This document shows positions 33,614-62,497 of a DNA stretch of 64,000 nucleotides, piece by piece; the first letter of the stretch is position 1; the number at the start of each line of letters is the position of its first letter. The stretch spans positions 4,704,001-4,768,000 of the forward strand of contig CBDCGL010000011.1 of assembly GCA_965216755.1 (NCBI GenBank). Direction: 5' to 3'. The stretch is from Alphaproteobacteria bacterium (GTDB lineage Bacteria > Pseudomonadota > Alphaproteobacteria > UBA7887). A program made the translations under genes and the position numbers. The notes under the pieces are model-generated. The model searched no databases, was not told where the DNA came from, and saw only the letters and a program-made list of their open reading frames with translations.

Positions 33614-35188
33614 ATGGCAACGGGGCGGGGAGATCACAGCGACGGGTGGCAAGCGGAAGTCGACACACTGGCCGACCGCCTGCGACGCGCGCGCGAGATG
33701 GGCGGAGCGGAAAAAATCGCCCGTCAACGCGCCGCCGGACGGATGACCGTGCGCGAGCGGATCGACGCCCTGCTGGACCCGGATAGTTTCCACGAAATCG
33801 GTGCCATCGCAGGGCGCGCGCTTTATGACGACGATGGCGTGTTGCAGGACTTTACTGCGTCGAACATCGTCTTTGGCCGTGGGCGGATCAGCGGCCGCCC
33901 GACGGTGGTGGTCGGCGACGATTTCACCATCCGGGGTGGGGCCGCGGACGCCAGTATCCACGCCAAGCAAATCGCCGCCGAACAAATGGCCAATGAATTG
34001 CGATTGCCCATCGTCCGTTTGGTGGAGGGTACGGGCGGCGGTGGCTCGGTGAAATCGGTCGAAATGGATGGTTACACATATGTGCCGGCGAATCCCGGCT
34101 GGAATTGGGTCGTCGACAACATGGCGACCGTGCCCGTGGTGTCTCTGGCTCTCGGGCCCGTGGCCGGCCTGGGCGCAGCCCGCATGGTCGCCAGCCATTA
34201 TTCGGTCATGGTGAAGGAGCTGTCGCAAATATTCGTGGCAGGTCCGCCCGTCGTGGCGCAGGTCGCGCAAAGCGTGACAAAAGAAGAGTTGGGCGGCGCG
34301 GCGATCCACGGCAGCAACGGCGTTGTCGACGATGTCGTCGAGTCAGAACAGGAGGCGTTCGCCAAGGCCCGGCGCTTTTTGTCATACATGCCCCAATCGG
34401 TGGACCAGCTTGCCGCGCGCGGCGCCGTGACGGACGCGCCCGGACGGCGCGAAGACTGGTTGATCAAGGCCGTGCCGCGCAATCGCCGACGCGTTTACAA
34501 AGTGCGCCCGATTATCGAGGCAATTGTTGACCAAGAAAGCTTTTTTGAGATCGGCGCCGGCTACGGGCGCTCGATCGTTGCCGGGCTCGCCCGCTTGGAC
34601 GGCTGGCCCGTCGGCGTCGTCGCGACGGACCCCTACGTGTTTGGGGGCGCCTGGACGGCCGACGCATCGTTTAAACTGATGCGTTTTGTCGATACGGCCG
34701 AAACGTTCCATTTGCCGGTGGTGCATTTCGTTGATTGCCCAGGCTTTATGATCGGTGTCGAGTCCGAGAAGGCCGCAACGATACGGCATGGGACGCGGGC
34801 CTTGTCGGCGATCTATCAGGCCACCGTGCCCTGGTGTTCGGTGATATTGCGTCGCGCCTTCGGTGTCGCCGGGGCCGCGCATGGCAACCACACGCGCTTT
34901 CATTATCGTTTCGCCTGGCCGTCGGGAGATTGGGGGTCGTTGCCGCTCGAGGGTGGCATTGAAGCGGCATACAAGGCCGATCTGGCCGAAAGCGACGATC
35001 CAGACGCCTTGCGCGCGGATATTGAACGGCGCCTCAATCATGTGCGCTCGCCGTTTCGGACCGCCGAACGTTTCGGTGTCGAAGACCTCATCGATCCGCG
35101 CGACACGCGACCCCTGCTGTGCGAGTTTGCCAATCTGGCGGCACCCTTACGGAAATTGGGATCGCGGCAGTTTGGCATGCGTCCCTAA
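33614..35188 (+). CDS. Acyl-CoA carboxylase carboxyltransferase subunit
   Basis: GRMTVRERI..LLD..SF.E.G, DDFTIRGG, FVDCPGF. Confidence 0.92.
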   Translation: MATGRGDHSDGWQAEVDTLADRLRRAREMGGAEKIARQRAAGRMTVRERIDALLDPDSFHEIGAIAGRALYDDDGVLQDFTASNIVFGRGRISGRPTVVVGDDFTIRGGAADASIHAKQIAAEQMANELRLPIVRLVEGTGGGGSVKSVEMDGYTYVPANPGWNWVVDNMATVPVVSLALGPVAGLGAARMVASHYSVMVKELSQIFVAGPPVVAQVAQSVTKEELGGAAIHGSNGVVDDVVESEQEAFAKARRFLSYMPQSVDQLAARGAVTDAPGRREDWLIKAVPRNRRRVYKVRPIIEAIVDQESFFEIGAGYGRSIVAGLARLDGWPVGVVATDPYVFGGAWTADASFKLMRFVDTAETFHLPVVHFVDCPGFMIGVESEKAATIRHGTRALSAIYQATVPWCSVILRRAFGVAGAAHGNHTRFHYRFAWPSGDWGSLPLEGGIEAAYKADLAESDDPDALRADIERRLNHVRSPFRTAERFGVEDLIDPRDTRPLLCEFANLAAPLRKLGSRQFGMRP

Positions 35189-35604
35189 GGGCGTTCGGCC
35201 CTGTCGCCGTCGCCGGCCTCGCGCGCCGCGCCGAGGATACGGGACACGGCGAAGAAATGGGTACGACATGATTCAAGATTGCGGCGGGCGACGCCAAGGT
35301 CGTCGTAGAGCTGGCACAACCAAGCCTCCCGCCGTTTGTCATCCAGCGGCTCCAGCGCGCCATTCGCGGCGGCGGCCTTGAAGCTTCGTATGGCGCGCAG
35401 GCGCTTGCGCAACTGGTCTTCGGCGGTGGCCAAGGCACTGCGCGCTTCACGGTAGGCGTGACGATCGGTGCCGCCCGCGATAAGCTCGGGTGGTATGGGC
35501 CCATCAAATCGCGTTTCCAGTTCTGCGAGGCGGCGAAGATCCCCGTCGGGTGGACTCTCGTCCCACAGCCTTATGGCCACAACAGGCCTCGGTCGGCGAT
35601 CCAC
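35185..35604 (-). CDS. Hypothetical protein, probably repressor-controlled
   Basis: 139-aa ORF; upstream promoter shares an operator-like palindrome with the Q-like gene promoter. Confidence 0.55.
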   Translation of the reverse strand: MDRRPRPVVAIRLWDESPPDGDLRRLAELETRFDGPIPPELIAGGTDRHAYREARSALATAEDQLRKRLRAIRSFKAAAANGALEPLDDKRREAWLCQLYDDLGVARRNLESCRTHFFAVSRILGAAREAGDGDRAERP

Positions 35605-35687
35605 TCACAATCCGACCAATCCGCCAAGGCCCAGATCAAATCCCTCGTCATCTACCTATCTCCTGAATTGACAATCAGCTTGAAAGC

Positions 35688-35716
35688 AACGTAAGTGTAA
35701 CTTACTTTAATGTCAA
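35688..35716 (-). promoter_or_regulatory. Sigma70-like promoter containing operator palindrome GTAAG-N5-CTTAC
   Basis: Minus strand TTGACA-17-TACGTT; GTAAGTGTAACTTAC at 35691-35705. Confidence 0.65.
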
Positions 35717-36010
35717 GTATTGCTTTCTTAAAGGTTAGCGGAATAGTAAGGGCAGGGCACGGCTGCGCGACGATTCGCGGCGCGTCGCTTTCGTGATTCG
35801 TTGCGGGTGTCGGGTGGGAGGGTAGGGATGGGCGGCGCGCAAGCAGGCGTCGGTGTCGGCGGCGTCCTGCGGGTCGATGCCGCGTTCACGACATAGATAG
35901 ACCGATCCGCGCGTATTGGCGGTCCGCGCTTCGACGCAGCTCAGGCGGCCAAGGCGAATCCCATGCGGCCCGGCGGTGCGCCTGGCGCCAAAAAAGCGAA
36001 GTCTTGCAAA

Positions 36011-36700
36011 CTATCGAATGCGCAAATTGCGGCGATAGCGGCGGTGCTCGACCATGGTTCCGATAATACGCGTGTCGCCATCGGGTTCGATGATCGTGGT
36101 CGGCCAATCGCTGTTGGCAGGTACGAGTTCGATCAGATAGGGGTGGCGGTCACCGCGCACCATGCGGTATTTGCGCAAATAGGCGTACGGGTAATTTGGC
36201 AGCTTTGCCAATACGATATCGCCGGGGTCGGGAGGTACGTCGGGGTCGATGACAACGCGGTCGCCGGTACGGATCTCGGGATCCATGCTGTCATCGGTAA
36301 CGGAAAAACCAAAGGCTCGATTGCCGACCACGACATCCGGCACAATTGTCGCCACGGTTGCGCCCAAATGGCGGACGACGGGATTCGGCCAATCGGCGGC
36401 CGAAAGATGGTCAAAAACATACAGCGCGCCTTGCTCGATTGGCGGCAGCTTGCCGGGCTCCTCGATCGGCAATTCCCGACCATCCGTATCTTGCATCGGG
36501 CCCTGATCGTTCGCCAGCCAAGATATATTGACGTTGTACATTAAGGCCAGATCAAGCAAGCGCGAACTGACCGGCGACGTCTTGCCGTTTTCCCACTGAG
36601 AGATCGATGAGCGGGTGACCGACAGCTGTTGGGCGACTTGGTCTTGGGAGAGGCCGGCACGCTGCCGGGCAAAGCGAAGACGTTCAGCCAAAGTTGACAT
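36011..36700 (-). CDS. CI/LexA-like repressor (XRE HTH + S24-like domain)
   Basis: ERLRFAR...GLSQ.QVA....VTRSSISQWENG; V.DDSM.P....GD.VVIDP...P.PGDIVLA; L.P.N..WP; IIG.MVE. Confidence 0.92.
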   Translation of the reverse strand: MSTLAERLRFARQRAGLSQDQVAQQLSVTRSSISQWENGKTSPVSSRLLDLALMYNVNISWLANDQGPMQDTDGRELPIEEPGKLPPIEQGALYVFDHLSAADWPNPVVRHLGATVATIVPDVVVGNRAFGFSVTDDSMDPEIRTGDRVVIDPDVPPDPGDIVLAKLPNYPYAYLRKYRMVRGDRHPYLIELVPANSDWPTTIIEPDGDTRIIGTMVEHRRYRRNLRIR

Positions 36701-36747
36701 AGCCGAAAGATGTGAGCGGATCTACCGCCTGTCACTGATAGAATCAC

Positions 36748-36776
36748 TTGACAAAGAGGTAAGACTTACTTAACAT
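36748..36776 (+). promoter_or_regulatory. Sigma70-like promoter with operator GTAAG-N5-CTTAA
   Basis: TTGACA(36748)-17-TAACAT; GTAAGACTTACTTAA at 36759-36773. Confidence 0.7.
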
Positions 36777-36801
36777 CCAATCTGGATAGGGCCACGGCGG
36801 T

Positions 36802-37236
36802 GTGTGCTGGGGCCAAACGTGGACAGAGGAGATAGAGATGGAGTGCGCCTCGGGTTGTGGCAGGACGGTTCCGTCAAGAGACATGGCCGCGCGCTTGGCG
36901 ACGGCCGCGGATACACTCAAGCGGCTACCGGCGTCGGGGCTGCGTCCGCACGGCGTGCGCAGCGCCTGGCCCGATGTGGTGCGTTCAGTTCAAGAGGCTT
37001 ATGGCTATGAACGTGCGCGGATGCGTCCGCCACCGCCAACGCCGGAGGCGATTGACGATCTGGACCGCTGTTTGGATTTGGTCAGAACGCTGAGCCCGGA
37101 CGACCAGCGGTTGGTGTGGGCGCGCGCCCTTGGCGCCCGTTGGCAGCCCTTGTGTCGCAAATTCGGAGTTAGTCGCAGCACCCTGTGGCGGCGTTGGGCG
37201 ATGGCGTTGGAAGCTCTTTCCAAAGTAAACGAATAA
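36802..37236 (+). CDS. DUF6362-like HTH protein, putative Q-like antiterminator/late activator
   Basis: RL..AADTL.RLP..., SAWP, PPP.P.AI, LVWARA.G..W..L....G.SR.T..RRW; followed by a promoter and terminator. Confidence 0.75.
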   Translation: MCWGQTWTEEIEMECASGCGRTVPSRDMAARLATAADTLKRLPASGLRPHGVRSAWPDVVRSVQEAYGYERARMRPPPPTPEAIDDLDRCLDLVRTLSPDDQRLVWARALGARWQPLCRKFGVSRSTLWRRWAMALEALSKVNE

Positions 37237-37241
37237 ATAGC

Positions 37242-37270
37242 TTGACAGAGAAATAACATTTTAGTATACG
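37242..37270 (+). promoter_or_regulatory. Putative late promoter (PR'-like)
   Basis: TTGACA-17-TATACG just after the Q-like stop codon. Confidence 0.65.
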
Positions 37271-37392
37271 AAACATCGTAATCTGACGCAAATCAGGCGC
37301 GGTATCGCAAGCCACGTCTGTTGTAGACGCTGAATTGCGTTCAATTGCGATTTGGCGCGTGCGCATCGCGTTTGATTGATTGCATGGTCCAG

Positions 37393-37423
37393 AAGCCTCG
37401 TCGACATACCGGCGGGGCTTTTT
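37393..37423 (+). terminator. Intrinsic terminator (tR'-like)
   Basis: AAGCCTCGTCG/CGGCGGGGCTT stem followed by a T run. Confidence 0.75.
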
Positions 37424-37428
37424 CGCGA

Positions 37429-37544
37429 CCTGAATGTGCGGCCGACGTTTGTGGCCGAAGCTGTGACTTAAGCAAGTGGCTTAGGTTTGTAGCCTAAGTT
37501 TGTAGTCTGCGTTTGCAACCTAAGTTTATCGCCTAAGTGGGGCG
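37429..37544. repeat. About 9 degenerate 13-bp tandem repeats, consensus CCTAAGTTTGTRG
   Basis: Units start at 37429, 37442, 37455, 37467, 37480, 37493, 37506, 37519, 37532. Confidence 0.7.
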
Positions 37545-37644
37545 TGCCGATTGCGGCACGCCCCTTTTCGTTTGGCATCGAGAGCGATCTCTAGCGGCGT
37601 AATTGTGCGCCGCCGAGGTCGCGTCTGACCCAGAGCACCCGCAT

Positions 37645-38883
37645 ATGTTTATCCCTTTTATGCCGCCGACGTTGGCGCAACGTGCCGCAATGGTCGAAGC
37701 ACTTTTGGCGCCACCGGCGCCGATGCTGCCAATGATCACGCCGGATTCGCCGATTGGCCGACCGGCGCAACCGGCAGTTCCGTTTGGGGCACCGTTCGGT
37801 GCCTTCGCGCCAATCGGTCCGGGCACGCCACCAGTATCCGAGAACGCGCACCGGCCGGGACCGTCAGCATTTGCCGGGCCATTATTTGGCGTGCCAATAC
37901 CGACGCCACCGCTGCCTCCGGTCATTCCGTCGCGGCAGGCCATGGTGGAGGCGCTTTTACCCGGGGCCGTCGTGAGCAGCTTCGAAGGCACGCCGACGGC
38001 GCCCGGTGCGCGGGTCGCCCCGGCTTCGCCGCCAAACTCGATGCAGCGCGCCATGGTGGAGGCGCTGTCACCGGATGTCGCCAAGTTCTTTGGATTTTCG
38101 CCGAACGGAGGCCCTGATGGCCCGGGCGCAACGCATCGAACGCCGACGAACCCACGGTTCCTTCCCAATCTCATTCTTGCCTCAGTCGGCCGCGATGAGC
38201 CACCGCCACCACAGAGTGTGGATGTGTTCAGTGATTTGCTTAAGCAAGGTGAGCCGGAGAGGTTATGGCGGGAGCCGTCAAATCCGACGCAACGAGAAAT
38301 CGGAGAGTTCATACTTTCGATCGCCCCGGGGGTCGGCGAGGTGATGTCGGCGATGGAAGCATATGACGCCTATAAAACTGCTTATGCGGCTTTGCAAGAC
38401 GGTGATACCCAGCGCGCTTTGGTTGCGGCGGCAAAGGGCACAACGGCATTGTTTTCGGTCATTCCCGTTTTCGGCCGCACTGTCAAGCTCTCGAAACTGG
38501 GTGTGATCCTCGCGCTGCGGCTCTTCGACCACGCTGACTACAAAGGTCCACAAATCAAGGAGGGGGAGGCGGGTGGCGAAAGTGCGAGCAGAAATTTCCC
38601 AAAAAAGGAAAAAGAGGCGACTAAGGTTCGCGACATTACAAGCACATGCGTATTTTGTCGGCAAGCGGGCGTCGGGGTCCAAGTGGATCATGCCCACCCA
38701 AAAGCGCGCGGCGGCAACGCAACGGAAGCGAACGCACAATTGGCCTGCGCCCATTGCAATCCGTCTAAGCGCGATCGAGACGTGCCTGTCAATCCCCCAC
38801 CCGGATGGCAAGGTGATTGGCCACCATACTGGATTGCAAAATGGCCGGAACTGCGGGGTATAGGTTTGCGGGTCCCGAGGTAA
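37645..38883 (+). CDS. Putative polymorphic toxin 1: Pro-rich N-terminus, helical pre-toxin domain, C-terminal HNH nuclease
   Basis: CVFC...QVDH.HP.ARGG.....NAQLAC.HCN.SK; followed by DUF4265-like genes; start uncertain. Confidence 0.8.
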   Translation: MFIPFMPPTLAQRAAMVEALLAPPAPMLPMITPDSPIGRPAQPAVPFGAPFGAFAPIGPGTPPVSENAHRPGPSAFAGPLFGVPIPTPPLPPVIPSRQAMVEALLPGAVVSSFEGTPTAPGARVAPASPPNSMQRAMVEALSPDVAKFFGFSPNGGPDGPGATHRTPTNPRFLPNLILASVGRDEPPPPQSVDVFSDLLKQGEPERLWREPSNPTQREIGEFILSIAPGVGEVMSAMEAYDAYKTAYAALQDGDTQRALVAAAKGTTALFSVIPVFGRTVKLSKLGVILALRLFDHADYKGPQIKEGEAGGESASRNFPKKEKEATKVRDITSTCVFCRQAGVGVQVDHAHPKARGGNATEANAQLACAHCNPSKRDRDVPVNPPPGWQGDWPPYWIAKWPELRGIGLRVPR

Positions 38884-39117
38884 AATGGAACGGTGCGTCG
38901 TGAGGGTTCGGCACACTGAGGAGAAAATAATTTCTGTGCTGGGTCCTATCTCAATCCATCATTTCAGTTGTTGAGATCGCGCAAGGATTGAATTACTTTG
39001 ATGACAATTCAATCGCTGTCGCGTAGATGTAAATTCAACTGTATCTCGCGAATCAATGATGCGAATAGAATATTTGAGCAAAGAATCCTGTAGAGGATAA
39101 ACAAAAAGGAAATCCGT

Positions 39118-39600
39118 GTGGGAAAATACAAAATATTCGAGCATTCTCTGCCACTGTGGGAAGACAAAGGCACGACCGTCGTCCTCGCTTACGTAACTGA
39201 TGATGAGGACAAGAATGAGTGGGAAGCCCTTTGGGCGCGTCAGATTAGAAAAGATCACTATGAAATTTGCTGTATACCATTCTTTGCCTATAAAATTGCC
39301 TTAGGCGATATTGTCCGGACCAATTCGAGACGGGCCGTGGTGGGCGTCGCTGAGCCTTCTGGTCGGTCCGTGTTTCGGGTCTACTTTAAGCCGGAATTTG
39401 ATGCAAGCACGCGAGAAGCGCGCATTCGAGATGTATTGAACGGTATCGCGGACTTAGGTGGCGAAATGGAATTCTACCATGAGGATCTTCTCGGTATTGA
39501 CGCGAAGAACAAGGATATCGCTAACAAAGTCGTTGAGTTCCTGAAGGAATGGGAAGGTAACACAGAGTTATTATTATACGAGCACGGCAAATATCCATGA
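39118..39600 (+). CDS. DUF4265-like putative immunity protein, copy 1
   Basis: E.LWA.....YEICCIPFFAY.IALGD.V....SGRSVFRV.F; low GC; downstream of the HNH toxin. Confidence 0.75.
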   Translation: MGKYKIFEHSLPLWEDKGTTVVLAYVTDDEDKNEWEALWARQIRKDHYEICCIPFFAYKIALGDIVRTNSRRAVVGVAEPSGRSVFRVYFKPEFDASTREARIRDVLNGIADLGGEMEFYHEDLLGIDAKNKDIANKVVEFLKEWEGNTELLLYEHGKYP

Positions 39601-39870
39601 ATATCAACATCGTGGTCGGGGCCCGATTTCAGCGACTGTTAACCTAATGCATCATACTTCGCAGACTATGTTTTAAAATCACAATTTGTGCGTTTGGTAA
39701 TGTGTCACCGTAATCCAAAGTTTCGCACGTCGAGAAAAGGTGTTTCTGGAGCGGGTCAGGGCGCGGTCTTGCGAACGCCGGGTGTTTGATGCGGTTTACG
39801 TCGACATAGGGCGATAGCGGCACGGTGTTTTTGCAAGAAATCCTGTGGGCATCCAACAAGAGGTTCCCGC

Positions 39871-40353
39871 GTGAAAAAATACAAAATATTTAAGCATTCC
39901 CTGCCATTGTGGCATGACAAAGTCGATTCCTTCATCATGGCTGACGTAACTGATGATGAGGACGAAGATCAGTGGGAGAAGATCTGGACACGTCGCGTTG
40001 AGAAGGAGCGCTATGAAATCTGCTGCATACCATTCTTCACCTATAAAATTGCCTTGGGCGACATCGTCCGTGCAGATTGGATGGGGGCTTTCAGATGGGT
40101 TGTCGAGCCCTCCGGTCGGTCCGTGTTTCGGGTCTATTTTGAGCCGGAATTCGATCCAAGCACGCGAGAAGCGCGCATTCGAGATGTTTTGAACGGTATC
40201 GCTGACTTAGGTGGCGAAATGGAATTCTACAATGAGGACCTCCTCGCTATTGACGCAAAGAACAAGGATATCGCTGACAAAGTCATAGAGTTTCTGAAGG
40301 AATGGGAAGATAATACCGAACTGCTGGAGTATGAGCACGGCAAGTATCCTTGA
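39871..40353 (+). CDS. DUF4265-like putative immunity protein, copy 2
   Basis: About 76% identical to copy 1 by manual count; 753-bp offset. Confidence 0.75.
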   Translation: MKKYKIFKHSLPLWHDKVDSFIMADVTDDEDEDQWEKIWTRRVEKERYEICCIPFFTYKIALGDIVRADWMGAFRWVVEPSGRSVFRVYFEPEFDPSTREARIRDVLNGIADLGGEMEFYNEDLLAIDAKNKDIADKVIEFLKEWEDNTELLEYEHGKYP

Positions 40354-40579: not shown

Positions 40580-40615
40580 GCCTCGGCGCCGAATTGGTGT
40601 CGGGGCTTTTTGTTT
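40580..40615 (+). terminator. Intrinsic terminator before the terminase genes
   Basis: GCCTCGGCGCCG/TGGTGTCGGGGC plus TTTTTGTTT. Confidence 0.7.
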
Positions 40616-52222: not shown

Positions 52223-52233
52223 GTCTCCGGCAA

Positions 52234-55593: not shown

Positions 55594-55944
55594 TTGTATC
55601 GCCGAGCGAAGGTGTCGATGGGGGCAAAAGTGGAGACGATATCGGCCGCGGATGTCGAGATGGTGGGGGCAGCGTGTGGCGTCGCCGCGAGCTTCATTTT
55701 TGTGCGCATGGTGGTCCGTACGGGCGACACCTTCCGTTGGTGGAAGGAATCGCGGCAGAGTCATCGTGAGTACAGAGAGAAACATCCCCAGCTCGGGCCA
55801 TATGATCCCAGTGGCTTGTCGGAGGAGTTTCTGGAATTGATTATCAAGAACTTGCCGGCACTAAAGCTGAGTGCTTTTTTGTACTTGGTATGTTTTGTGT
55901 GTTTCTTGGCGTCGGCGATCTATCGGTTCTTCGCTTTGCCTTAG
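55594..55944 (+). CDS. Two-TM membrane protein family C, copy 1
   Basis: ISAADVEMVGAACG...CFLASAIYRFFAL; paralog at 58629. Confidence 0.65.
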   Translation: MYRRAKVSMGAKVETISAADVEMVGAACGVAASFIFVRMVVRTGDTFRWWKESRQSHREYREKHPQLGPYDPSGLSEEFLELIIKNLPALKLSAFLYLVCFVCFLASAIYRFFALP

Positions 55945-55973
55945 AATTTAAAACTGGAGCGCCAATGACGAAT

Positions 55974-56004
55974 GGGTCGGTGCCTGTCGGCAGCGGCCCT
56001 TTTT
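55974..56004 (+). terminator. Intrinsic terminator (paralogous copy at 59048-59079)
   Basis: GGGTCGGTGCC..GGCAGCGGCCC plus TTTTT. Confidence 0.6.
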
Positions 56005-56037
56005 GTTGGCCAAACACAACAACAGGAGAACGACATC

Positions 56038-57177
56038 ATGCCCTGGAACGGATCCGGGACCTTTAGTCGCACCGACGGCACGCGCAACGGCGCGACCGTT
56101 TGGGAGCAGGCCAAGGCGGCGGCGGTAAAGATTGTCGCTGGCGATCACGACACACACGACCAGGATTTGGCGCAAGGCATCCAGAATTGTTTGGCCAAAG
56201 ATGGTCAAAACAGTCCATCCACGCATATCGACTGGGGTGGGCAACGGATCACCAATTTGGGTGCGCCGGCGGCCGCGACCGATGTGGCGCGCAACGATTT
56301 AAATGGCGTGAGCGCATCGACGGCGCGGACAAATTTGGGCTTGGGGGCGCTGGCGATACAGTCGACGATTAACACCGCGGACATCGGCGATAATGAAGTG
56401 ACGCCGGCCAAACTATCCCATGGCACCGCCAATCAAGTTCTGGCCATGGACGGCGGTTCGCCCGACTGGCGCGACCTGTCGACGGCGTTGGACAACGCGA
56501 TCGGTGGCACACAAGGCAATATTCTGTACCGGGGTGCCGCGACTTGGGACGTGTTGGCGCCGGGAACATCGGGGCAGTTTCTGGCGTCGCAGGGTGCGGG
56601 CGCTAACCCGCAATGGGTCGATGCACCTGTCGCCAGCCGCATGGTGTTGATCGCCACTCAGAATATCACCAGCGGCGTCGCACAAGTCGATTTCGCCAGC
56701 GGCATCGACGGCAGCTACGACGTGTACAAGCTGCTGATCGCGCTGGGTCACGTGGCCACGGATGGCGTCGATTTGTTGCTGCGTATCGGTACAGGTGGTG
56801 GACCAACCTATCAGGCGACCAACTATCGGCGGTCGGCTATGCGCGTTGGCGCCGATTCGACGACCGGCGTGCAATCGGACGGTGCCAGTTCAGCCACATC
56901 CATCAATTTGAGCGACGGCGGGACCAACACGATCGGCAACGCCGCGACGGAATGTTTCAATGGCGAGATAACGTTGTTCAATCCAGCCGACGGCACGCGT
57001 CACAAGCCGATCACGTATGACATGACGTGGCTGGAGCCGGATGGCGAAGTTAGCCGATCATCCGGTGCCGGTGTGTGGTCGGGCGGTGCCGACGCGATCA
57101 CGGCGCTGCGGTTGCTGGCCAGCAGCGGCAATATTGATGGCGGTCGGTTCAGTTTATTCGGGATCAACCATGGCTGA
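56038..57177 (+). CDS. Tail fibre / tailspike protein
   Basis: AGGAG RBS; MPWNGSGTF...DLAQGI.NCL.KDG podoviral anchor; ARTNLGLG.LA and GT.GQFL.S.G.GANP.W shaft motifs. Confidence 0.85.
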   Translation: MPWNGSGTFSRTDGTRNGATVWEQAKAAAVKIVAGDHDTHDQDLAQGIQNCLAKDGQNSPSTHIDWGGQRITNLGAPAAATDVARNDLNGVSASTARTNLGLGALAIQSTINTADIGDNEVTPAKLSHGTANQVLAMDGGSPDWRDLSTALDNAIGGTQGNILYRGAATWDVLAPGTSGQFLASQGAGANPQWVDAPVASRMVLIATQNITSGVAQVDFASGIDGSYDVYKLLIALGHVATDGVDLLLRIGTGGGPTYQATNYRRSAMRVGADSTTGVQSDGASSATSINLSDGGTNTIGNAATECFNGEITLFNPADGTRHKPITYDMTWLEPDGEVSRSSGAGVWSGGADAITALRLLASSGNIDGGRFSLFGINHG

Positions 57178-57179
57178 GG
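56962..57179 (+). repeat. About 218-bp direct repeat (tail fibre 3' end), copy 1
   Basis: 10 mismatches versus 59185-59402 by manual alignment. Confidence 0.9.
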
Positions 57180-57300: not shown

Positions 57301-57879
57301 TCAGTCCTTTAACGTCATTTCTAGATCGGTTATGACGGCGGCCAGGAACAAAGCATCGTCAAAGCCGACATAGCGATGGCGTGAGATTTTGGAGATTCGA
57401 AAACAGATTGTATGGCGCAAGAAAGGGCCAAACAAAGTTGTACGGTAAGTCATCGCGAGAACGAAAGCACAGTGGGCGCGCTCGAATGGTTCACGAATAT
57501 CTTCGGGCAGATCATCAGCAATTTTACGAAGCTCTTGCCAACGCGTGAAAGTCACGTCCCACTGACTGAAAGGCAGTTTCTTGGCCTCTTCCGGTCGTTC
57601 CGGAATCGCGATCGAAGCCCAGAAACGCAAGTGACCAGTGATAAGAAGCCTAATGAGAGGCCACATTCCAAAATCTCGACATATGAGGTCGGCCAATGTT
57701 GAGCACGCTGAATCCGCTGGGCTGCCAAAATGATCACTTTTGGCGAAGATCCCTTGAACACGAAGTACATCGTGTTCCAAATCGGATCGAATTCTAAGGC
57801 CACGCAAAGTCGCACACGACCACATACCAACTAGAATCAAAACAAAGCTAACTGAAAGCAGCCACGTGGGGGTTGTCAA
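57301..57879 (-). CDS. Membrane-anchored protein family A, copy 3 (diverged)
   Basis: IADDLP...REPFERAHCAFVLA...RHTICFRISKISRHRYVGFDDALFL. Confidence 0.7.
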   Translation of the reverse strand: MTTPTWLLSVSFVLILVGMWSCATLRGLRIRSDLEHDVLRVQGIFAKSDHFGSPADSACSTLADLICRDFGMWPLIRLLITGHLRFWASIAIPERPEEAKKLPFSQWDVTFTRWQELRKIADDLPEDIREPFERAHCAFVLAMTYRTTLFGPFLRHTICFRISKISRHRYVGFDDALFLAAVITDLEMTLKD

Positions 57880-57896
57880 TGATTTGATGTCTCAAT

Positions 57897-58184
57897 TTAC
57901 GGTACATTGTGCTTCTTCCCGGCGGTGTTTGTTCGTCCGGAATTATTCACTTGTCGTTGATGGCGTAGATGCGAGACCGCTTCGCGACGACGTTTGAGTT
58001 TATCTTGGTACTCGAGCGCGCCCCTTATAAGGGCGACAATGTAGATAACGCAGGCGCCCAACGCAGCTAGGAATATTACCACCGAAGTCGCCATCACAAG
58101 GTAACCAGAGAAAAAAGTCTGCAGCCAATGTAGGGTTAACGCCCAAAGCTGGTGGACAAAAACCAAAGCCCGATCAAAAAACAT
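57897..58184 (-). CDS. Small membrane protein family B, copy 3 (diverged)
   Basis: MFFDRA...HWLQTFFSGYL; upstream DNA is also homologous (DN.T motif in frame). Confidence 0.55.
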   Translation of the reverse strand: MFFDRALVFVHQLWALTLHWLQTFFSGYLVMATSVVIFLAALGACVIYIVALIRGALEYQDKLKRRREAVSHLRHQRQVNNSGRTNTAGKKHNVP

Positions 58185-58317
58185 CCGATTCGCTAAATCA
58201 CACGTGAGGTTATCCAGGGTCGCCTTAAGAAATGTGGATTTAATCTTATCTGAAAACATTAGTGAAATACAAGCCTGCGATCTGCGACCGGCCGCCACGG
58301 ACGCGTGACAAAACGGG

Positions 58318-58550
58318 ATGCCAAAGAACGTTTCCATTTGTGTGCTTCGCCTCGATCAACCTAGGAATTGGAAGGGTGCATTTCGACATGCAACTAACCC
58401 TCTGAGCGAACGTCTGCTCGGGCAAGCGGGCCCAAGGCTGCAATTGGGTGTCACCCTCGACATGTCGAAACTTCCCGTGATCGAGCCGTGGTCGGAAACT
58501 CCGACGGTTCTACTCGCTTGTTAGAATTCCCTGGTCCGCGATGCGGTGGT
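58318..58550 (+). pseudogene. Degenerate remnant of the toxin 2 5' end
   Basis: LGQAG...PVIEPWSE versus LGQTG...PVFEPWLE; premature TAG. Confidence 0.6.
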
Positions 58551-58628: not shown

Positions 58629-59018
58629 TTGAATAACGTGATGGAGAGTTGCGGAAAACTTGACGTGCCTAGCAGTCGTCGACATCTGCGGAAGGCGACA
58701 GTGAAAGTGATTTCCGCCGCAGACATTGAGATGCTCGGGGCCGCGTGCGGTATCATCGCGAGCCTAATTGTGGCACGCATTGTGGCCAAAGCAGGTCGTA
58801 CGATGCGCCGGATGTACGTGTCGCATAAGTGGGATCTTGAGCATTATGCTACTAGGCATCCGGATATCATGCAGGATCACTACAACAGATTGTCAGTACA
58901 AATGCTACGTTTGATTGTTGAAAATTTACGAGCAATTTCATTGAGTATTATTCTGTACTTCATTTTCTTTGTTTGTTTCTTTGCCTCTGCGATGTATCGA
59001 TATTTCGCCCTGACCTAA
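58629..59018 (+). CDS. Two-TM membrane protein family C, copy 2
   Basis: ISAADIEMLGAACG...CFFASAMYRYFAL. Confidence 0.65.
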   Translation: MNNVMESCGKLDVPSSRRHLRKATVKVISAADIEMLGAACGIIASLIVARIVAKAGRTMRRMYVSHKWDLEHYATRHPDIMQDHYNRLSVQMLRLIVENLRAISLSIILYFIFFVCFFASAMYRYFALT

Positions 59019-59112: not shown

Positions 59113-59400
59113 ATGCTCTGGAAAAAGTCCGCGATCTTTAATCGCATCGCGCGCACGCGATACGGCGACACGGCGAATATTGAAGGCGAGATAACGATGT
59201 TCAATCCAGCCGACGGCACGCGTCACAAGCCGATCACGTATGACATGACGTGGCTGGAGCCGGATGGCGAGGTTAGCCGATCGTCCGGCGCCGGTGTGCG
59301 GTCGGGCGGTGCCGACGCGATCACTGCGCTGCGTTTGCTGGCCAGCAGCGGCAATATTGATGGCGGTCGGTTCAGTTTGTTCGGGATCAATCACGGCTGA
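59113..59400 (+). pseudogene. Internally deleted tail fibre copy
   Basis: First ~20 codons resemble the fibre N-terminus (MLWKKSAIFNRIARTRYG vs MPWNGSGTFSRTDGTRNG), fused in frame to the last ~71 codons. Confidence 0.75.
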
Positions 59401-59411
59401 GGATAACACAT

Positions 59412-59699
59412 ATGACGTTCACTGTTGCGGCCGCCTTATTGGCGGCTTTTTTATCGCCCATTTCCGCGCGCCCCGTGTGCGCGCCCCATGACGATGCCGT
59501 CGCCGCGTTGCGCGACCGCCATCAGGAAACACGTCAGGCCTTCGGCATGGGCACGGGCGGTCAGCGCTTGATGGAAATCTATGCCAGCGACTCGGGCGCG
59601 TTCACAGTCTTGATCACGGACGTCCGAGGTCTGGCGTGCGTGGTTATGGTGGGGGAAGGCTGGTCTGTCGACACCGTGCCGCAAGGGGACCCGTCATGA
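59412..59699 (+). CDS. Small secreted conserved protein
   Basis: Signal peptide; C....L...H.E....G......MEI.AS..G.FT.L.T...G.AC....GEGW. Confidence 0.7.
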   Translation: MTFTVAAALLAAFLSPISARPVCAPHDDAVAALRDRHQETRQAFGMGTGGQRLMEIYASDSGAFTVLITDVRGLACVVMVGEGWSVDTVPQGDPS

Positions 59700-59920
59700 A
59701 CATCGATGATCTGGCGCAACAGATCGGCCGGCTGCAAGGCGATGTGCAGTCCATGAGCTTGCGCTTGGCGCAACTGGAAGGCGACGTGCGGGCCTTGAAA
59801 GCCGTGGCCAACATCGGCAAAGGCGCGTTCTGGGTTGCCCTGAAACTGGGTGGCGGCTTGACGTTGATCGCAGCGGCTGCTTTCGGCGTGCGCGACTGGA
59901 TCAAGCATCTTTTTTCGTGA
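59696..59920 (+). CDS. Putative holin/antiholin-like protein
   Basis: Coiled coil plus single C-terminal TM directly before the endolysin. Confidence 0.55.
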   Translation: MNIDDLAQQIGRLQGDVQSMSLRLAQLEGDVRALKAVANIGKGAFWVALKLGGGLTLIAAAAFGVRDWIKHLFS

Positions 59921-59930: not shown

Positions 59931-60587
59931 ATGATTGTACCACGTGGCATTCGCAACCATAACCCTGGCAATATCAAGCTCAGCCGCGATCGGTGGCAAG
60001 GGCTGGCGCCGGTGCAGGGAGATTCGACGTTCTTTCAGTTCACGGCACCGACCATGGGCATTCGGGCCCTGGCGCGGACGCTGATCACCTATCAAGATCG
60101 TCATGAACTGACGACCGTTCGGCAAATGATCAGTCGCTGGGCGCCGCCGGCTGATGGCAATCCCACGGAGCGCTACGTTCACTATGTCGGCGAATACATG
60201 CATGTTGCGCCGGACGCCTCGGTTGATATGCATCGTTTCGACGACGCCCGTGCCTTGGTCGAAGCCATAATTTGGTACGAAAACGGGCAGCAACCCTATG
60301 GCCCGCGGGTGATCGGCAAGGGTCTCATGCTGGCGGGGATCGAGCCGCCGTCACGTGATTTGCGCATGTCGCGCACGGTGCGCGGCGGCCAGGCCGCCGT
60401 GGCGGCGACAGTCGGCAGCGGGATCATCGCGGCCGTTGACGACATTTCCCAGTCGGCGAAAACCGAACTTATAGGTCTGCTGCCGTTTCTGCCATGGCTG
60501 AAATATGCCTTGCTTATTTTCATTCTGGCCGGACTCGGCGCCATGCTGTGGGCGCGCGTCGACGATCACCGGCGGGGGTTGCGCTGA
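59931..60587 (+). CDS. Endolysin (lysozyme-like fold) with C-terminal TM segments
   Basis: PRGIRNHNPGNI...WQG...F.QF.....GIRA....L..Y, I.RWAP...N.T..Y, ENG. Confidence 0.8.
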   Translation: MIVPRGIRNHNPGNIKLSRDRWQGLAPVQGDSTFFQFTAPTMGIRALARTLITYQDRHELTTVRQMISRWAPPADGNPTERYVHYVGEYMHVAPDASVDMHRFDDARALVEAIIWYENGQQPYGPRVIGKGLMLAGIEPPSRDLRMSRTVRGGQAAVAATVGSGIIAAVDDISQSAKTELIGLLPFLPWLKYALLIFILAGLGAMLWARVDDHRRGLR

Positions 60588-61057
60588 TGATTGGCGCGAT
60601 CGGTCGGCTGCTGATGGGTGGCGGCATGCGCTGGATGCTCATCGCTGCGATTGTCGGCGGCGGCGTCATCTATGGCTGGTGGCAACAACAACGGGTGGCG
60701 AGCTTGCGCGGCCAATTGGCCGTTACCGAGGCCCGTGTCGGTCAAGCCGATGCCGCTTTGGCAAACTTGCTCACGCAACGCGCCGACGAAGCAGAACGAC
60801 TCATAAACTTGCGAAGGAACTTGGCGACAGCCGATGCGGAAAACCAAAGAGCACAAGCGCAGATCGACACGCTGCGGGCAACCATTGAAACCGAACTGGC
60901 GACGGATCCGGATGCATTTGCACGTGGTGCCACTTGCCGTCTTAATCGGATCCTGCACGGCCTCCACCACGCCAGTGGTGGTAACGCCGCCACCGGCGTT
61001 ACCGGTTGCGGCGCCGACGCCGATCCGCCCTTGCGCGGTGACGGTGACCGCAGATAA
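60587..61057 (+). CDS. Rz-like i-spanin
   Basis: N-terminal TM plus coiled coil and C-terminal Cys; overlapped by a lipoprotein gene. Confidence 0.7.
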   Translation: MIGAIGRLLMGGGMRWMLIAAIVGGGVIYGWWQQQRVASLRGQLAVTEARVGQADAALANLLTQRADEAERLINLRRNLATADAENQRAQAQIDTLRATIETELATDPDAFARGATCRLNRILHGLHHASGGNAATGVTGCGADADPPLRGDGDRR

Positions 61058-61175
61058 CTCAACTGTTCGTTTGTCACCACAAGATTGGCTGACCTTGGAA
61101 GCGTGTTTGGCCGACGCCGCGCGCTACGTACGCCAGCTGCGCGATATTCAGGAAATCGAAAATTCGGCGCGTTAG
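60912..61175 (+). CDS. Rz1-like o-spanin lipoprotein
   Basis: Different frame overlapping the Rz 3' end; lipobox LIGSC; Pro-rich. Confidence 0.7.
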   Translation: MHLHVVPLAVLIGSCTASTTPVVVTPPPALPVAAPTPIRPCAVTVTADNSTVRLSPQDWLTLEACLADAARYVRQLRDIQEIENSAR

Positions 61176-61179
61176 TTCG

Positions 61180-61530
61180 GTCGGCGGCAGGATCCCCTCT
61201 GTCAGTGGGCGAAAATGCTGGCGAGGAAGTACCAATATGACGACACATAGAAACCAAGGTCCGGAATGGAAACAAAGAAACCCAGACGGCCAAAAAACAA
61301 ATGGCGAGAATGTTCAAGGCCGATGTGGCGATCATGACCGAACGAATTCTTTCGCATTCAATGAGCATGTAAACATTCGAGACGACAACCATGAAGGCCG
61401 TGACGTAAATCATCGCCCAAAAGGTCAGTGTACCAGGGACCCAAAGCAGATAAGATCGATCAACCGCAAACGGAATGGCGACATTGGTTAGCGTCCACGT
61501 TGTCGATAATTGCCGGTCTACGCGTTCCAT
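61180..61530 (-). CDS. Membrane protein family D, copy 1 (frame runs on antisense to the spanins; true 3' end unclear, possibly degenerate)
   Basis: TW...NV..PF, IYV..F...VSN..M.IE...RS.MI....LN shared with 61567..61959. Confidence 0.45.
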
Positions 61531-61566
61531 CTTCCTTCCCTCAAAAGAAAACGGTTGATTTCCCGC

Positions 61567-61959
61567 TTAGCGATTTGCATGGTGCCACGATAAGGCCCAG
61601 TGTGTCGACTGGAAGTTCGGAAGCAGGACGATCGTGCCAAAGAATCCCGGATGATGTAGGAAAACGAAAGAAGACAGGTTGAGCAACAAGACCAAAATCA
61701 TGAATGATCTACGTGGGCGATGCTCAATTATCATGGCAATATTGCTGACGGTCATAACAAAAACGACAACATAGATGGCCAAAGGATACAGATAATAGTG
61801 AAACGATTCGTGTTTAGACCAGTGAATGACCATAAATGGCAAGACAACGTTCACGATCATCCACGTTGGCGCGAAAGTTAGAGCAGTGTCAGACAATATT
61901 GAACCATTCTGTTCGCGGCCCGGCGTCGCGAGCCGCCCGACTAATGTGGTCGTCCACAT
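61567..61959 (-). CDS. Membrane protein family D, copy 2
   Basis: Hydrophobic, low GC, paralogous to the adjacent ORF. Confidence 0.5.
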   Translation of the reverse strand: MWTTTLVGRLATPGREQNGSILSDTALTFAPTWMIVNVVLPFMVIHWSKHESFHYYLYPLAIYVVVFVMTVSNIAMIIEHRPRRSFMILVLLLNLSSFVFLHHPGFFGTIVLLPNFQSTHWALSWHHANR

Positions 61960-62132
61960 GGATTCTCATTGGGGGTCGCCCGCAGTTTGCGAACCCGCGG
62001 GGCCGGGCGCATTTCCGCCAATCTCGGCGTCGCTGTCCTTGGCCGTATTCCCGATACGCCCCGCGGACAGCGACTTGATCTTGACAGAAATGCGCTGCGG
62101 CAGAATGATTCAATATTGTCTGACACTGCTCT
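61880..62132. repeat. 32-bp inverted repeat pair (61880-61911 / 62101-62132)
   Basis: AGAGCAGTGTCAGACAATATTGAA(C/T)CATTCTG, 31/32 match. Confidence 0.85.
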
Positions 62133-62497
62133 GCAGTGTTGCTGACGTCATGAGAGCGACGACCGTCGATATCTATTTTTCCAATCCGCGCGAACCAAAA
62201 TCTTCAATAACGAACAGCTTTGTGGACGCATTGTCCTGATGCCCGCGCATTGCACCGCTCAAATCCGGACCAAGCGCCAGGAGAATGAAAGCCTGTTCAT
62301 CCAACACAACGGCGCATACCGGCCACTCTCACGCCGCACGCCAAAACGACCGCGACCGGGCAGTCTTTCCAATTCCCCTACGCGCCACCGTAACAGCAAA
62401 CACCTATGTGCACGGCGCCAATAGCCCGGCGATCATGAGTTGACCAATGACGAAATTATAACGGACGCTGTCGCGTATGGGAAGTGATTCGTTCGAT

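Follow-up and report, generated by a model that had tools for sequence, protein, structure and literature searches.

The 64,000-nucleotide stretch of DNA analysed here (the window) holds, at 35.2-62.2 kb, an intact-looking late region of an Mx8/Brucella Tb-type podovirus (~27 kb), which we take, with slightly better than even confidence, to be an immobilised ('locked-in') prophage remnant, left by a temperate podovirus of the same type as Mx8, Brucella Tb-Pr and Bradyrhizobium ppBjS10J-1. Its SOS-to-late-gene switch probably works, a GTA/PBSX-like role is possible, and the most economical reading is that the early genes were lost fairly recently. ORFs between 35185 and 62240 were scanned with Pfam and PHROG profiles. 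The late set comprises small and large terminase subunits (TerS, TerL), portal, scaffold, capsid, adaptor, nozzle-position protein, GNAT and virion protein, followed distally by a fibre, a holin-like gene, an endolysin and Rz/Rz1; upstream of it stand only an S24 repressor (cI/LexA-type) and a DUF6362 gene. Integrase, Cro, replication and recombination families had no match among the scanned ORFs of this interval (PF00589 has 11 matches genome-wide, none inside the window), and a search of the element for an att site or excision function found none left. The first-pass annotation had described absent early genes beside intact-looking structure and lysis genes, with no space between the flanking host genes, and the scans agree: a carboxyltransferase gene (33614-35188) adjoins the element on the left and an enoyl-CoA hydratase gene (62498-63343) on the right.

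Two contigs binned with the same genome, C3 and C1, carry a related phage in which the early genes are normal. On C3, O-like replication, methylase, resolvase and CII-like genes lie upstream of DUF6362; C1 has int, xis and a 113-aa homologue of p139 at the head of a leftward operon extending to both. The switch region of the element consists of the following features.

35185-35604, minus strand: p139, first and sole surviving gene of a leftward (PL-type) operon (43% identity to the C1 ORF)
35668-35721, minus strand: putative leftward promoter, TTGACA-17-TACGTT (sequence reading and motif search)
36011-36700, minus strand: cI/LexA-type repressor, HTH and Peptidase_S24 (Pfam S24 E 3e-15, HTH_19 E 1e-14, Phage_CI_repr E 5e-6)
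36748-36776, plus strand: rightward promoter, TTGACA-17-TAACAT (promoter scan, 10/12 matches; motif search)
36802-37236 (in part with start 36838), plus strand: DUF6362, candidate late-gene activator (Pfam E 5e-33)
37235-37573, plus strand: late promoter copy 1, AAATAGCTTGACA ... TATACG, with leader and intrinsic terminator (sequence reading, promoter scan)
40518-40616, plus strand: late promoter copy 2, AAATAGCTAGACA ... TATAGT, with intrinsic terminator at 40580-40616 (promoter scan)

The 3' end of p139 abuts the stop codon of the host carboxyltransferase, and its homology to the C1 ORF ends near 35245. The palindrome GTAAGTGTAACTTAC sits between the hexamers of the putative leftward promoter, which the promoter scan did not flag; another, GTAAGACTTAC at 36759, overlaps the rightward promoter. 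A repressor and a Q-like gene had been proposed as the only genes upstream. The repressor was recovered, whereas the Q-like assignment was rejected: the C-terminal half of DUF6362 resembles sigma region 4 in its AF2 model (pLDDT 81), and the best-ranked Foldseek rows belong to the -35-binding domains of ECF sigma factors (none reaches E 1e-3). The longest upstream ORF is co-oriented with DUF6362 in 24 of 29 other loci, so the gene is normally the last of the early operon, just ahead of the terminase. Here it precedes both late promoter copies, each followed by a terminator; that of copy 1 lies at 37539-37573, behind a leader with a 13-bp tandem repeat (4.2 copies, 37485-37538). Besides its two copies in the window, this promoter-terminator unit has one on C3, between DUF6362 and TerS.

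The relatives of the element are phages of 38-53 kb with the common order TerL-portal-...-capsid-adaptor-nozzle-GNAT-p290-like. Its own packaging, head and tail genes are listed with amino-acid identities to C3.

40718-41116 (start uncertain, 40718 or 40775), plus strand: small terminase subunit (phrog_15261 E 5e-5)
41001-42548, plus strand: large terminase subunit (phrog_38 E 7e-111; Terminase_6N, Terminase_6C)
42581-44506, plus strand: portal (phrog_12082 E 2e-179; P22_portal 27.6 bits, cut-off 26.1; 71% identity)
44503-45573, plus strand: scaffold protein by position, without family match (45% identity)
45595-46569, plus strand: major capsid protein (phrog_9953 E 2e-108; SU10_MCP; 88% identity, dN/dS 0.06)
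46582-47835, plus strand: two head or neck proteins, 169 and 220 aa (57% and 70% identity; phrog_20268)
47968-48759, plus strand: adaptor (SU10_adaptor E 1e-10; phrog_6013 E 2e-49)
48756-50297, plus strand: 513-aa tail protein in the nozzle position (phrog_5107 E 8e-90; 80% identity)
50294-50707, plus strand: GNAT acetyltransferase (phrog_4470 E 1e-38)
50700-51572, plus strand: 290-aa virion protein, candidate ejection protein (phrog_6121 E 9e-12; 64% identity)

The C3 counterpart of the small terminase also matches phrog_641, a small terminase family, and phrog_5107 carries the PHROGs label 'amidase'. The GNAT position is conserved in relatives (C3, L008, L071 and L074).

Toxin-like genes and candidate immunity genes lie on both sides of this block.

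37645-38883, plus strand: tox1, 426-aa ORF with a C-terminal HNH nuclease domain (31.4 bits, cut-off 21.4)
39118-39600, plus strand: DUF4265 copy a, candidate immunity protein (Pfam E 1e-21)
39871-40353, plus strand: DUF4265 copy b, candidate immunity protein, paralogue of copy a
53699-55321, plus strand: tox2, 540 aa, with proline-rich N-terminus, shared linker domain and a possible C-terminal MuF-C/BECR-like domain (sequence comparison)
55594-55944, plus strand: p116, downstream of tox2, predicted two-TM protein (sequence reading), paralogue of p129 (48% identity)
58629-59018, plus strand: p129, paralogue of p116

In tox1 a proline-rich N-terminus and the linker domain (residues ~212-314) precede the HNH domain. 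The proposed kinship of the two toxins holds (31% identity over 103 residues, E 5e-10), their common part being an unnamed linker domain of ~100 residues; the HNH domain of tox1 scores above its cut-off, whereas the nuclease tip that had been ascribed to tox2 is faintly suggested. Elsewhere the linker is fused to a range of effector domains, among them MuF, PBECR, ART and GIY-YIG, and, judged by this domain sharing, tox1 and tox2 belong to a phage-borne set of effector-tipped proteins. Because some members of the set carry MuF or occupy the MuF slot beside a portal-like gene, the earlier suggestion that the toxins ride in heads is a reasonable one. The two DUF4265 genes come directly after tox1 (76% identity to each other, dN/dS 0.20); for p116 and p129 dN/dS is 0.22.

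The remaining features extend from the virion protein to the right border.

51632-53699, minus strand: two tandem two-gene membrane-protein cassettes, 196+148 aa and 194+121 aa (80% nucleotide identity between units)
55972-57177, plus strand: fibre-like protein, 401 aa (phrog_14820 E 1e-15; phrog_13989 E 1e-5)
57301-58337, minus strand: third membrane cassette, 192+146 aa (56-57% identity to the 196- and 194-aa copies; dN/dS 0.13)
59113-59400, plus strand: truncated second copy of the fibre C-terminus (59185-59402 has 95% identity to 56962-57179)
59412-59699, plus strand: 95-aa protein with signal-peptide-like N-terminus (three chromosomal paralogues)
59696-59920, plus strand: 74-aa protein with C-terminal TM segment, holin candidate (position and sequence)
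59931-60587, plus strand: endolysin, transglycosylase-type (phrog_873 E 9e-54), with predicted C-terminal TM segment
60587-61175, plus strand: spanins, Rz (60587-61057; phrog_214 E 3e-9) and overlapping lipoprotein Rz1 (~60912-61175; lipobox read as LIGSC)
61200-61959, minus strand: two paralogous small membrane ORFs (sequence reading)
61879-62132: dispersed repeat of ~205-250 bp marking the right border region (blastn against the genome, dozens of chromosomal copies)

The tandem membrane cassettes show dN/dS of 0.28 and 0.45, and the sole relatives of their proteins among 5.8 billion proteins are paralogues in the same genome. The three minus-strand two-gene membrane cassettes, p139, the duplicated late promoter and the truncated repeat of the fibre 3' end had been missed at first pass.

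We suggest that two stretches were lost, the int-xis-recombination arm left of p139 and the entire cro-to-replication segment between the repressor and DUF6362, which would leave a two-gene switch wired straight to an apparently intact late region. The S24 repressor would hold the rightward promoter and probably also the leftward one. Upon DNA damage it would cleave itself; DUF6362 would then be made and switch on both late promoter copies, and may also let RNA polymerase pass the terminator after each. Heads, short tails and lysis proteins would follow. Since the element lacks the means to excise or replicate, and its 27 kb fall short of the 38-53 kb of its relatives' genomes, the terminase would be expected to fill heads in situ from the chromosome, including host DNA beside the element. 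Both tox1 (HNH) and tox2 (MuF-C/BECR-like) would be late proteins, probably packed into the heads, and the two DUF4265 genes probably shield the lysogen from tox1.

Several features count against a mere remnant. The late genes compared with C3 show no stop or frameshift, the lysis cassette is still there, as are both promoters, and each loss stops precisely at a point that leaves the switch and late region usable; a wreck that had long drifted neutrally would look different, and for a host, carrying an inducible lysis cassette is a burden that calls for some return. They fit a domesticated, PBSX/GTA-like element that would not replicate but would build podovirus-type particles under SOS control, to the benefit of kin, with host DNA and nuclease toxins in the heads, a reading that we regard as doubtful yet worth serious thought. 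It draws on the intact-looking late and lysis genes, the clean switch and the presence, alongside the toxin genes, of putative immunity genes that are paralogues and evolve under purifying selection. It also draws on two other alphaproteobacterial lineages, G199 and G134, with DUF6362 proteins among the closest homologues (48.5% and 44.9%; best 30 loci), in which a divergent S24 repressor, DUF6362, terminase and portal occur without an integrase or replication gene. The G199 cluster is syntenic in three of the four species of its genus, and a TRAP-transporter flank of such early-gene-less clusters is common to two families; the architecture can thus persist over long times. For the element itself, however, the host maintenance proposed at first pass, to which G199 offers an analogous case, is not supported by its distribution. 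The capsid gene occurs in none of 22 same-family genomes, the portal in 14 of 400 other genomes of the class (all ≤45% identity), and no close relative was found in the phage, viral and metagenome collections searched (TerL identity in the viral and metagenome sets was ≤58% at best). At family level the flanks show no synteny (the genus is represented by one genome in the collection). Moreover, the regulator is a phage-type repressor and not a host circuit, the truncated fibre copy and duplicated cassettes point to ongoing rearrangement, and the same bin holds a related phage equipped with O-like replication genes, a methylase, a resolvase and an integrase. Near-identical variants and related phages occur together in the samples.

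This co-occurrence bears on a further reading, which we consider unlikely: that C3/C1-type relatives rescue the element or swap modules with it, supplying early functions, so that it is a helper-dependent prophage or a reservoir for recombination. The late genes are 60-88% identical to those of the phage in the bin, and C3 shares a 3.5-kb block, at 98% identity, with window positions 4485-7958. In all four sequencing runs (one study), contigs track the window to 51312 and 53929 and diverge beyond, and in X1 and X2 word depth is ~1.5-2 times as high in the contigs of 44.0-51.6 kb as in the one from the host flank, a weak hint. C3, however, differs in TerL, repressor and late-region end, the element retains no att site or excision function, and the small contigs may derive from other strains in the sample.

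Against the locked-in remnant with a working switch stands the view, to us very improbable, that a defect invisible to sequence comparison has already disabled the switch or some indispensable late gene and nothing is produced. The fibre region is indeed rearranged, and after the p290-like gene the element has one or two proteins where relatives have four (417-551 aa). None of the late genes compared with C3 carries a stop or frameshift, however, in alignments spanning most of the gene length, and TerL has readable motifs that we take to be those of its ATPase and nuclease. Late-gene dN/dS against C3 is 0.06-0.23, which dates nothing because dS is saturated (1.2-2.6).

A misjoin of a phage late region to the chromosome, conceivable given ten small unplaced contigs in the genome and runs that resemble community samples, is the least credible reading of all, as independent short-read contigs of the four runs contain 93-100% of the sampled words across 34501-44500, a span that takes in both joints. 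Contigs from these runs also cover 44-64 kb with breaks at repeats only, and one bridges 62036 into the host flank.

The element, a 27-kb phage block of podovirus-type genes, sits between the host carboxyltransferase gene (33614-35188) and an enoyl-CoA hydratase gene (62498-63343, minus strand). The window (G000:C11:4704001-4768000) lies on a 4.85-Mb contig, and the assembly holds ten further small contigs of 4-26 kb. The assembly is probably a bin centred on a closed chromosome; C1, C3 and the other small contigs are 'binned with' this chromosome and may come from the same cell.

Features of the element, left to right (window coordinates)
35185-35604, minus strand: p139, the first gene at the left border
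36011-36700, minus strand: cI/LexA-type repressor with HTH and Peptidase_S24 domains
36838-37236: DUF6362
After DUF6362: tox1 (412 aa), with an HNH nuclease at the C-terminal end
Between tox1 and TerS: two DUF4265 genes
Head block, in order: TerS, TerL, portal, scaffold-position gene, capsid gene, two small head/neck genes
Tail block after the head/neck genes, in order: adaptor, 513-aa nozzle-position tail protein, GNAT, 290-aa virion protein
51632-53699, minus strand: two tandem membrane-protein cassettes, after the 290-aa virion protein and before tox2
Next: tox2 (540 aa), then p116, then the 401-aa fibre
57301-58337, minus strand: third membrane-protein cassette, after the fibre, with p129 next
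Right end, in order: truncated 3' copy of the fibre, small secreted protein, holin-like ORF, endolysin, Rz/Rz1

The P22-like portal, the SU10-type capsid and the SU10-type adaptor all score above their Pfam cut-offs. No match to integrase, Cro, replication or recombination families was found among the ORFs scanned in the element; the integrase family PF00589 has 11 matches genome-wide and none inside the window, and a search for att sites gave no direct repeat longer than 12 bp linking the two borders. These results bear out the first-pass annotation in its description of a phage late cluster stripped of early genes. A tailocin, being a tail-only particle, was rejected because the element has genes for the terminase, portal, scaffold and capsid. 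We lean, without great conviction, towards reading the element as an immobilised podovirus prophage remnant in which the SOS switch, the late activator, the particle and the lysis genes probably still work.

Four public sequencing runs, from one study and two samples, contain the element stretch; all are very large, community-sample-like contig sets. In these runs 93-100% of the sampled words of 34501-44500, a span that includes both critical joints, are present, and run contigs tile 44-64 kb with interruptions only at internal repeats, one contig bridging into the right host flank. No public RNA runs are listed as holding the stretch.

A search with the portal matched 51 phage records, every one below 60% identity. 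The phages matched are the Brucella Tb/Pr group, Mx8/Mx9, Bradyrhizobium ppBjS10J-1, Rhizobium RHph_I3_18 and Ruegeria 45A6, whose genomes span 38-53 kb. Within the Mx8, Brucella Tb-Pr, ppBjS10J-1 and RHph_I3_18 group the portal is 30-38% identical to that of the element, and these Mx8-type podoviruses share with it the order TerS, TerL, portal, scaffold, capsid, adaptor, nozzle-position protein, GNAT and ~290-aa virion protein. However, they are 38-53 kb long and have recombination, replication and regulatory modules, whereas the element has 27 kb and lacks early genes; and where they continue after the p290-like gene with four proteins of 417-551 aa, the element has only tox2 and one fibre. 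In ppBjS10J-1 the same late order, with GNAT and a ~282-aa gene behind it, leads on to the four 417-551-aa proteins and a full recombination/early gene set.

Related phage genes also occur on two of the small contigs. The late region of C3 (24.5 kb) has amino acid identities to the element of 88% (capsid), 80% (nozzle-position protein), 71% (portal) and 64% (p290), with a different TerL. Directly upstream of its own DUF6362, C3 carries genes for an O-like replication initiator, a DNA methylase and a Holliday-junction resolvase, together with a CII-like gene. On C1 are found an integrase gene, an ORF resembling an excisionase and other leftward genes, their operon being headed by a 113-aa p139 homologue (43% identity) with an S24/HTH repressor beyond it. 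Measured against these relatives, the element has suffered two losses. One removed all that lay left of p139: homology stops near 35245 and the ORF reaches a host stop codon. The other removed the whole interval between repressor and DUF6362, whose start codons are just 137 bp apart. Elsewhere on the chromosome, the only homologue of a C1/C3 early gene that was found is a CII-like ORF at 0.14 Mb.

A fragment of a C3-like phage lies at window 4433-8310, beside tRNA-Pro (8470-8546). Its stretch 4485-7958 is 98% identical to C3 14327-17800, a block that on C3 sits between TerL and portal. A 1021-aa ORF in the fragment has a match in Rcc01080, the head spike fibre of RcGTA (PDB 6tb9, E 1e-23), and a 97-aa ORF at 8017-8310 has 64% identity to the gene behind the C3 portal; the portal itself is absent from the fragment.

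The regulatory interval of the element is compact. A good sigma-70-type promoter (TTGACA-17-TAACAT, 36748-36776) is aimed at DUF6362 and holds the palindrome GTAAGACTTAC between its hexamers. A related palindrome, GTAAGTGTAACTTAC, lies inside a minus-strand TTGACA-17-TACGTT upstream of p139; as read from the sequence, this would be a second, putative promoter and both palindromes putative operators, their spacing differing between the two. Behind DUF6362 stands the first copy of the late promoter, AAATAGCTTGACA-N17-TATACG, followed by a leader of ~270 nt with a 13-bp x 4.2 tandem repeat (GTTTGTAGCCTAA, 37485-37538), immediately 5' of the strong intrinsic terminator (37539-37573) that closes the leader. 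The second copy precedes TerS (40518-40616) and has its terminator ~25 nt downstream. On C3, the promoter-terminator unit likewise lies between DUF6362 and TerS. Thus, with two units in the element and the C3 arrangement for comparison, the block of tox1 and the two DUF4265 genes, which has a lower G+C, has the look of an insertion in the course of which the late promoter was duplicated. A ~100-bp stretch just upstream of the second late promoter (40378-40474) has two other chromosomal copies at 77-79% identity.

DUF6362 was found in 83 of the 401 class genomes, G000 included. The longest upstream ORF is co-oriented in 24 of the best 29 other loci, and two genomes, G135 and G173, have large replication-type ORFs upstream and methylase, TerS, TerL and portal genes downstream; this arrangement places DUF6362 at the early/late boundary. 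An AlphaFold model built from 25 sequences (pLDDT 81) has a C-terminal helical domain, for which Foldseek ranks highest region 4 of ECF sigma factors, the part that binds the -35 element (probability 0.96-0.99, target TM 0.6-0.8 over 52-70 columns, none at E 1e-3); the same region gives weak Pfam matches to Sigma70_ECF and HTH families. The name 'Q-like', used for this gene in the first pass, agrees with its position before the late region, and two units in the element, each a late promoter with a close terminator, would fit a lambda-Q-type layout. As for the protein itself, no Q family is among its Pfam matches, and no Q protein stands among the sigma-region-4-like top rows of Foldseek, where no row reaches E 1e-3. 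We take DUF6362 as a putative late activator that is 'Q-like' in position only. Viral contigs searched with DUF6362 as a single protein yielded nothing, and no paper on the family was found.

tox1 and tox2 have ~100 residues in common (31% identity, E 5e-10). An exhaustive HMMER search with tox2 gave 42 proteins at E <=1e-3, tox2 included, the majority matched over this segment only. A Pfam scan of the set together with tox1 (43 proteins) identified PBECR1 (3), PBECR3 (2), PG_binding_1 (2) and, once each, LPD3, Peptidase_C39, Phage_Mu_F, GIY-YIG, PI-PLC-X, ART, Endonuclea_NS_2, PBECR2 and MuF_C; the sole HNH match was tox1 itself. Since such varied effector families are joined to the common segment, we interpret it as a domain that acts as linker or pre-toxin in effector proteins of phages. 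An assignment to PT-TG (PF14449) was rejected, as that family has no match genome-wide at E 10; a search for PBECR3 in the genome likewise found no match. Among 8000 scored candidates, tox2 had no near homologue but itself, and the best score for tox1 in the ESM Atlas was 0.78, under the useful range.

The C-terminal HNH domain of tox1 scores 31.4 bits against a cut-off of 21.4, and a CxxC...DH...N...CxxC pattern, which we take to be the HNH motif, is readable in the sequence. An HNH protein of the terminase-associated packaging kind was rejected: the domain is fused behind a 300-residue toxin-type N-terminus, and tox1 is absent from C3 and located in the block between the two late promoter copies. 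The C-terminus of tox2 is common to seven homologues, one of which, P0041, has a MuF domain in front; two of them have sub-threshold PBECR2/3 matches and one a sub-threshold MuF_C match. Genome-wide, tox2 alone offers a MuF_C candidate, which scores 14.1 bits where the cut-off is 27.6. With a model of the domain (pLDDT 70), Foldseek found nothing at E 1e-3 in the PDB, and RNase toxins of the BECR fold (BrnT, RelE, colicin D, CdiA-CT) head the VIA list, with weak Z values of 5.1-3.5. A nuclease tip on tox2, acting as an RNase, is plausible but weakly supported.

Downstream of tox1 lie the two DUF4265 genes (76% identical, dN/dS 0.20), and downstream of tox2 the two-TM protein p116. We infer that the DUF4265 proteins confer immunity to tox1. 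A complex prediction for tox1 residues 300-426 with DUF4265a yielded no verdict, at a score of 0.00 and a mark of 0.34. Across 400 class genomes DUF4265 occurs at 4 other loci, none beside a recognisable toxin gene (neighbours read by ORF maps and tblastn), and a literature search, judged by title and abstract, found nothing related. A viral contig of 12.9 kb (L072) has an 861-aa linker-domain protein directly behind a portal-like gene (phrog_332), and a second one, of 338 aa, followed by three tandem 128-aa ORFs that resemble an immunity array; this arrangement resembles the tox1/tox2 pair.

MuF polymorphic toxins are described by Jamet et al. (2017; PMC5576092) as late head-associated proteins of temperate phages with a variable C-terminal toxin domain and small downstream putative immunity ORFs. 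tox1 and, on weaker evidence, tox2 are alike in the variable C-terminal toxin domain, and the tox2 C-terminus homologue P0041 does have a MuF domain. In contrast, neither tox1 nor tox2 has a Pfam hit to Phage_Mu_F at E 0.01; their N-terminus is proline-rich and followed by the unnamed linker domain of ~100 residues, and the element has an alphaproteobacterial host and a podovirus as its phage. Iyer et al. (2017; PMC5512222) count MuF-C among the PBECR domains, whether active or not, and predict that proteins of this kind enter the head and are injected. Here too there is a likeness, in that sharers of the linker domain carry PBECR1/2/3, LPD3, ART and MuF-C. We rejected tox1 and tox2 as polyvalent proteins, which have at least two disparate effector domains; each has one recognisable effector domain. 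Moreover, polyvalent proteins of lytic phages have no immunity genes, whereas tox1 has putative ones.

The membrane cassette, a minus-strand pair of membrane-protein genes, is present in three copies with dN/dS of 0.13-0.45, and on these ratios is under purifying selection. Its 196-aa protein has relatives only among paralogues in this genome when searched against 5.8 billion proteins; a role in superinfection exclusion or immunity is a guess. p116 and p129 are two-TM paralogues, p116 standing before the fibre and p129 before the fibre fragment, and the terminal 218 bp of the fibre gene are repeated 2.2 kb downstream at 95% identity.

The first-pass annotation proposed a domesticated particle that delivers toxins and DNA, which we consider a live but less likely alternative, unsupported for this element itself. 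The late genes show no stop or frameshift compared with C3, the lysis cassette and both promoter copies are retained, and the two losses stop exactly where the switch remains usable, all of which speaks for domestication; dS between window and C3 is saturated, so that dN/dS values cannot date the early-gene loss. The distribution argues the other way. The capsid gene occurs in 0 of 22 same-family genomes, and the portal in 14 of 400 other class genomes at no more than 45% identity; a related-loci scan of genome contigs with the portal gave one locus (43%). The closest TerL has 53% identity in viral contigs (16 loci) and, as a partial match, 58% in metagenome contigs (18 loci). 'Host-maintained' is the part of the proposal that lacks support. 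The genus is represented by a single genome in the collection, and at 8 same-family loci the carboxyltransferase orthologue (70-73% identity) is without any window neighbour alongside.

The public runs also bear on this point. Contigs in all four track the window to 51312 (inside p290) and 53929 (in the N-terminus of tox2), beyond which they diverge, and a contig of run X3 is without one cassette copy (window 52419-53472); variants of the element are thus present in the samples. The word depth of contigs over 44-51.6 kb is ~1.5-2x that of the host-flank contig in runs X1 and X2. Together, and subject to the tool's caveats, these observations hint that a near-identical head module with another tail end circulates in the same samples, which fits a living phage population and speaks against domestication. 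The toxin-cargo half of the original idea is better supported than the host-maintained half.

Domestication gains credibility from syntenic early-gene-less clusters elsewhere. In G134, DUF6362 lies 125 bp from a divergent 279-aa S24-type ORF, with TerL, portal, capsid-position, tail and tape-measure-size genes behind it (~18.5 kb in all); TRAP-transporter genes mark where the cluster stops, and the contig's only integrase is 72 kb away. In G199 the order is repressor, one ORF, DUF6362, one ORF, TerS, TerL and portal. Neighbours in both were identified by ORF maps and tblastn. The G199 TerL is present in three of the four species of its genus (92% and 82% identity), and two of those three, G335 and G422, have the whole ~20-kb cluster behind the same two flank genes, with identities of 89-96% for flank genes and 62-89% for cluster genes. 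G134 and G335 belong to different families and have the TRAP flank in common (72%, 47% and 61% identity). The DUF6362 proteins of G199 (48.5%) and G134 (44.9%) are among the closest to that of the window. No integrase or replication gene was found in the clusters of G199:C14, G335:C12, G422:C3 and G134:C9 (~18-20 kb), and a PDB sequence search with the G134 capsid-position protein and TerL gave no match and no tie to RcGTA. These clusters look vertically kept and are candidate particle systems of vertical descent that contain an SOS switch of their own. That the element is itself such a host-kept, SOS-triggered podovirus-type factory is the less likely reading; as such it would carry MuF-less nuclease toxins in its heads, deliver them to sister or rival cells along with host DNA from its vicinity, and belong to a wider, undescribed class of alphaproteobacterial clusters with an S24 repressor and a sigma-region-4-like DUF6362 directly before the terminase.

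PBSX of Bacillus subtilis and the pyocins under PrtR/PrtN have a repressor, one positive late regulator (sigma-like in PBSX) and structural and lysis genes, with no replication genes. The element resembles them in this chain from repressor through one positive regulator to structural and lysis genes; no homology was found between it and either system. PBSX is a contractile-tailed particle whose heads carry host DNA, and pyocins are without a head. Neither is known to have toxin cargo of the tox1/tox2 type.

The gene transfer agents RcGTA and CcGTA (Tran and Le 2024; PMC11150451) and BaGTA (bioRxiv 10.1101/2024.11.20.624540) are early-gene-less phage-derived particle clusters, and the element is alike in kind. 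Promoter-proximal terminators that work together with a dedicated regulator, an activator or anti-terminator, are another likeness, and in CcGTA a tandem repeat is the terminator that GafZ overrides; the 13-bp repeat before the terminator of the element is a further likeness. Unlike these gene transfer agents, the element has a regulator of another family (in a control search DUF6362 had no hit above cut-off in Caulobacter), a phage SOS-type repressor, a podovirus morphotype as judged from its genes, and its own lysis genes within 27 kb. The only regulators seen adjoining it are the phage-type S24 repressor and DUF6362.

If the remnant we favour still fires, it would provide a natural example of short-tailed phage heads that serve purely to deliver nuclease cargo and host DNA packaged in situ. 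Capsid-borne toxins would then reach beyond MuF proteins and Firmicutes, and DUF6362 would gain a testable role as late-gene activator of many alphaproteobacterial prophages. The syntenic repressor-DUF6362-terminase clusters are candidates for a GTA type with its own SOS switch. Should the element be only a fresh wreck, two findings keep their use: the linker domain as a new family, and the unit of late promoter and terminator.

Several minor observations concern the surroundings. Window 61879-62132 is a dispersed repeat of ~205-250 bp with dozens of chromosomal copies (72-90% identity), and the overlying 137-aa ORF is unlikely to be a real gene. Of the small contigs, C5 and C10 overlap mutually (94-99%), the end of C7 overlaps the chromosome (100%), and three places on the chromosome match an insertion-sequence-like 2.5-kb block of C10 at 100% identity. 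The host genes upstream (window 28863-32402) are of heme d1/nitrite reductase type and comprise a radical SAM enzyme, a cytochrome d1 heme-domain protein and a CbiX-like chelatase.
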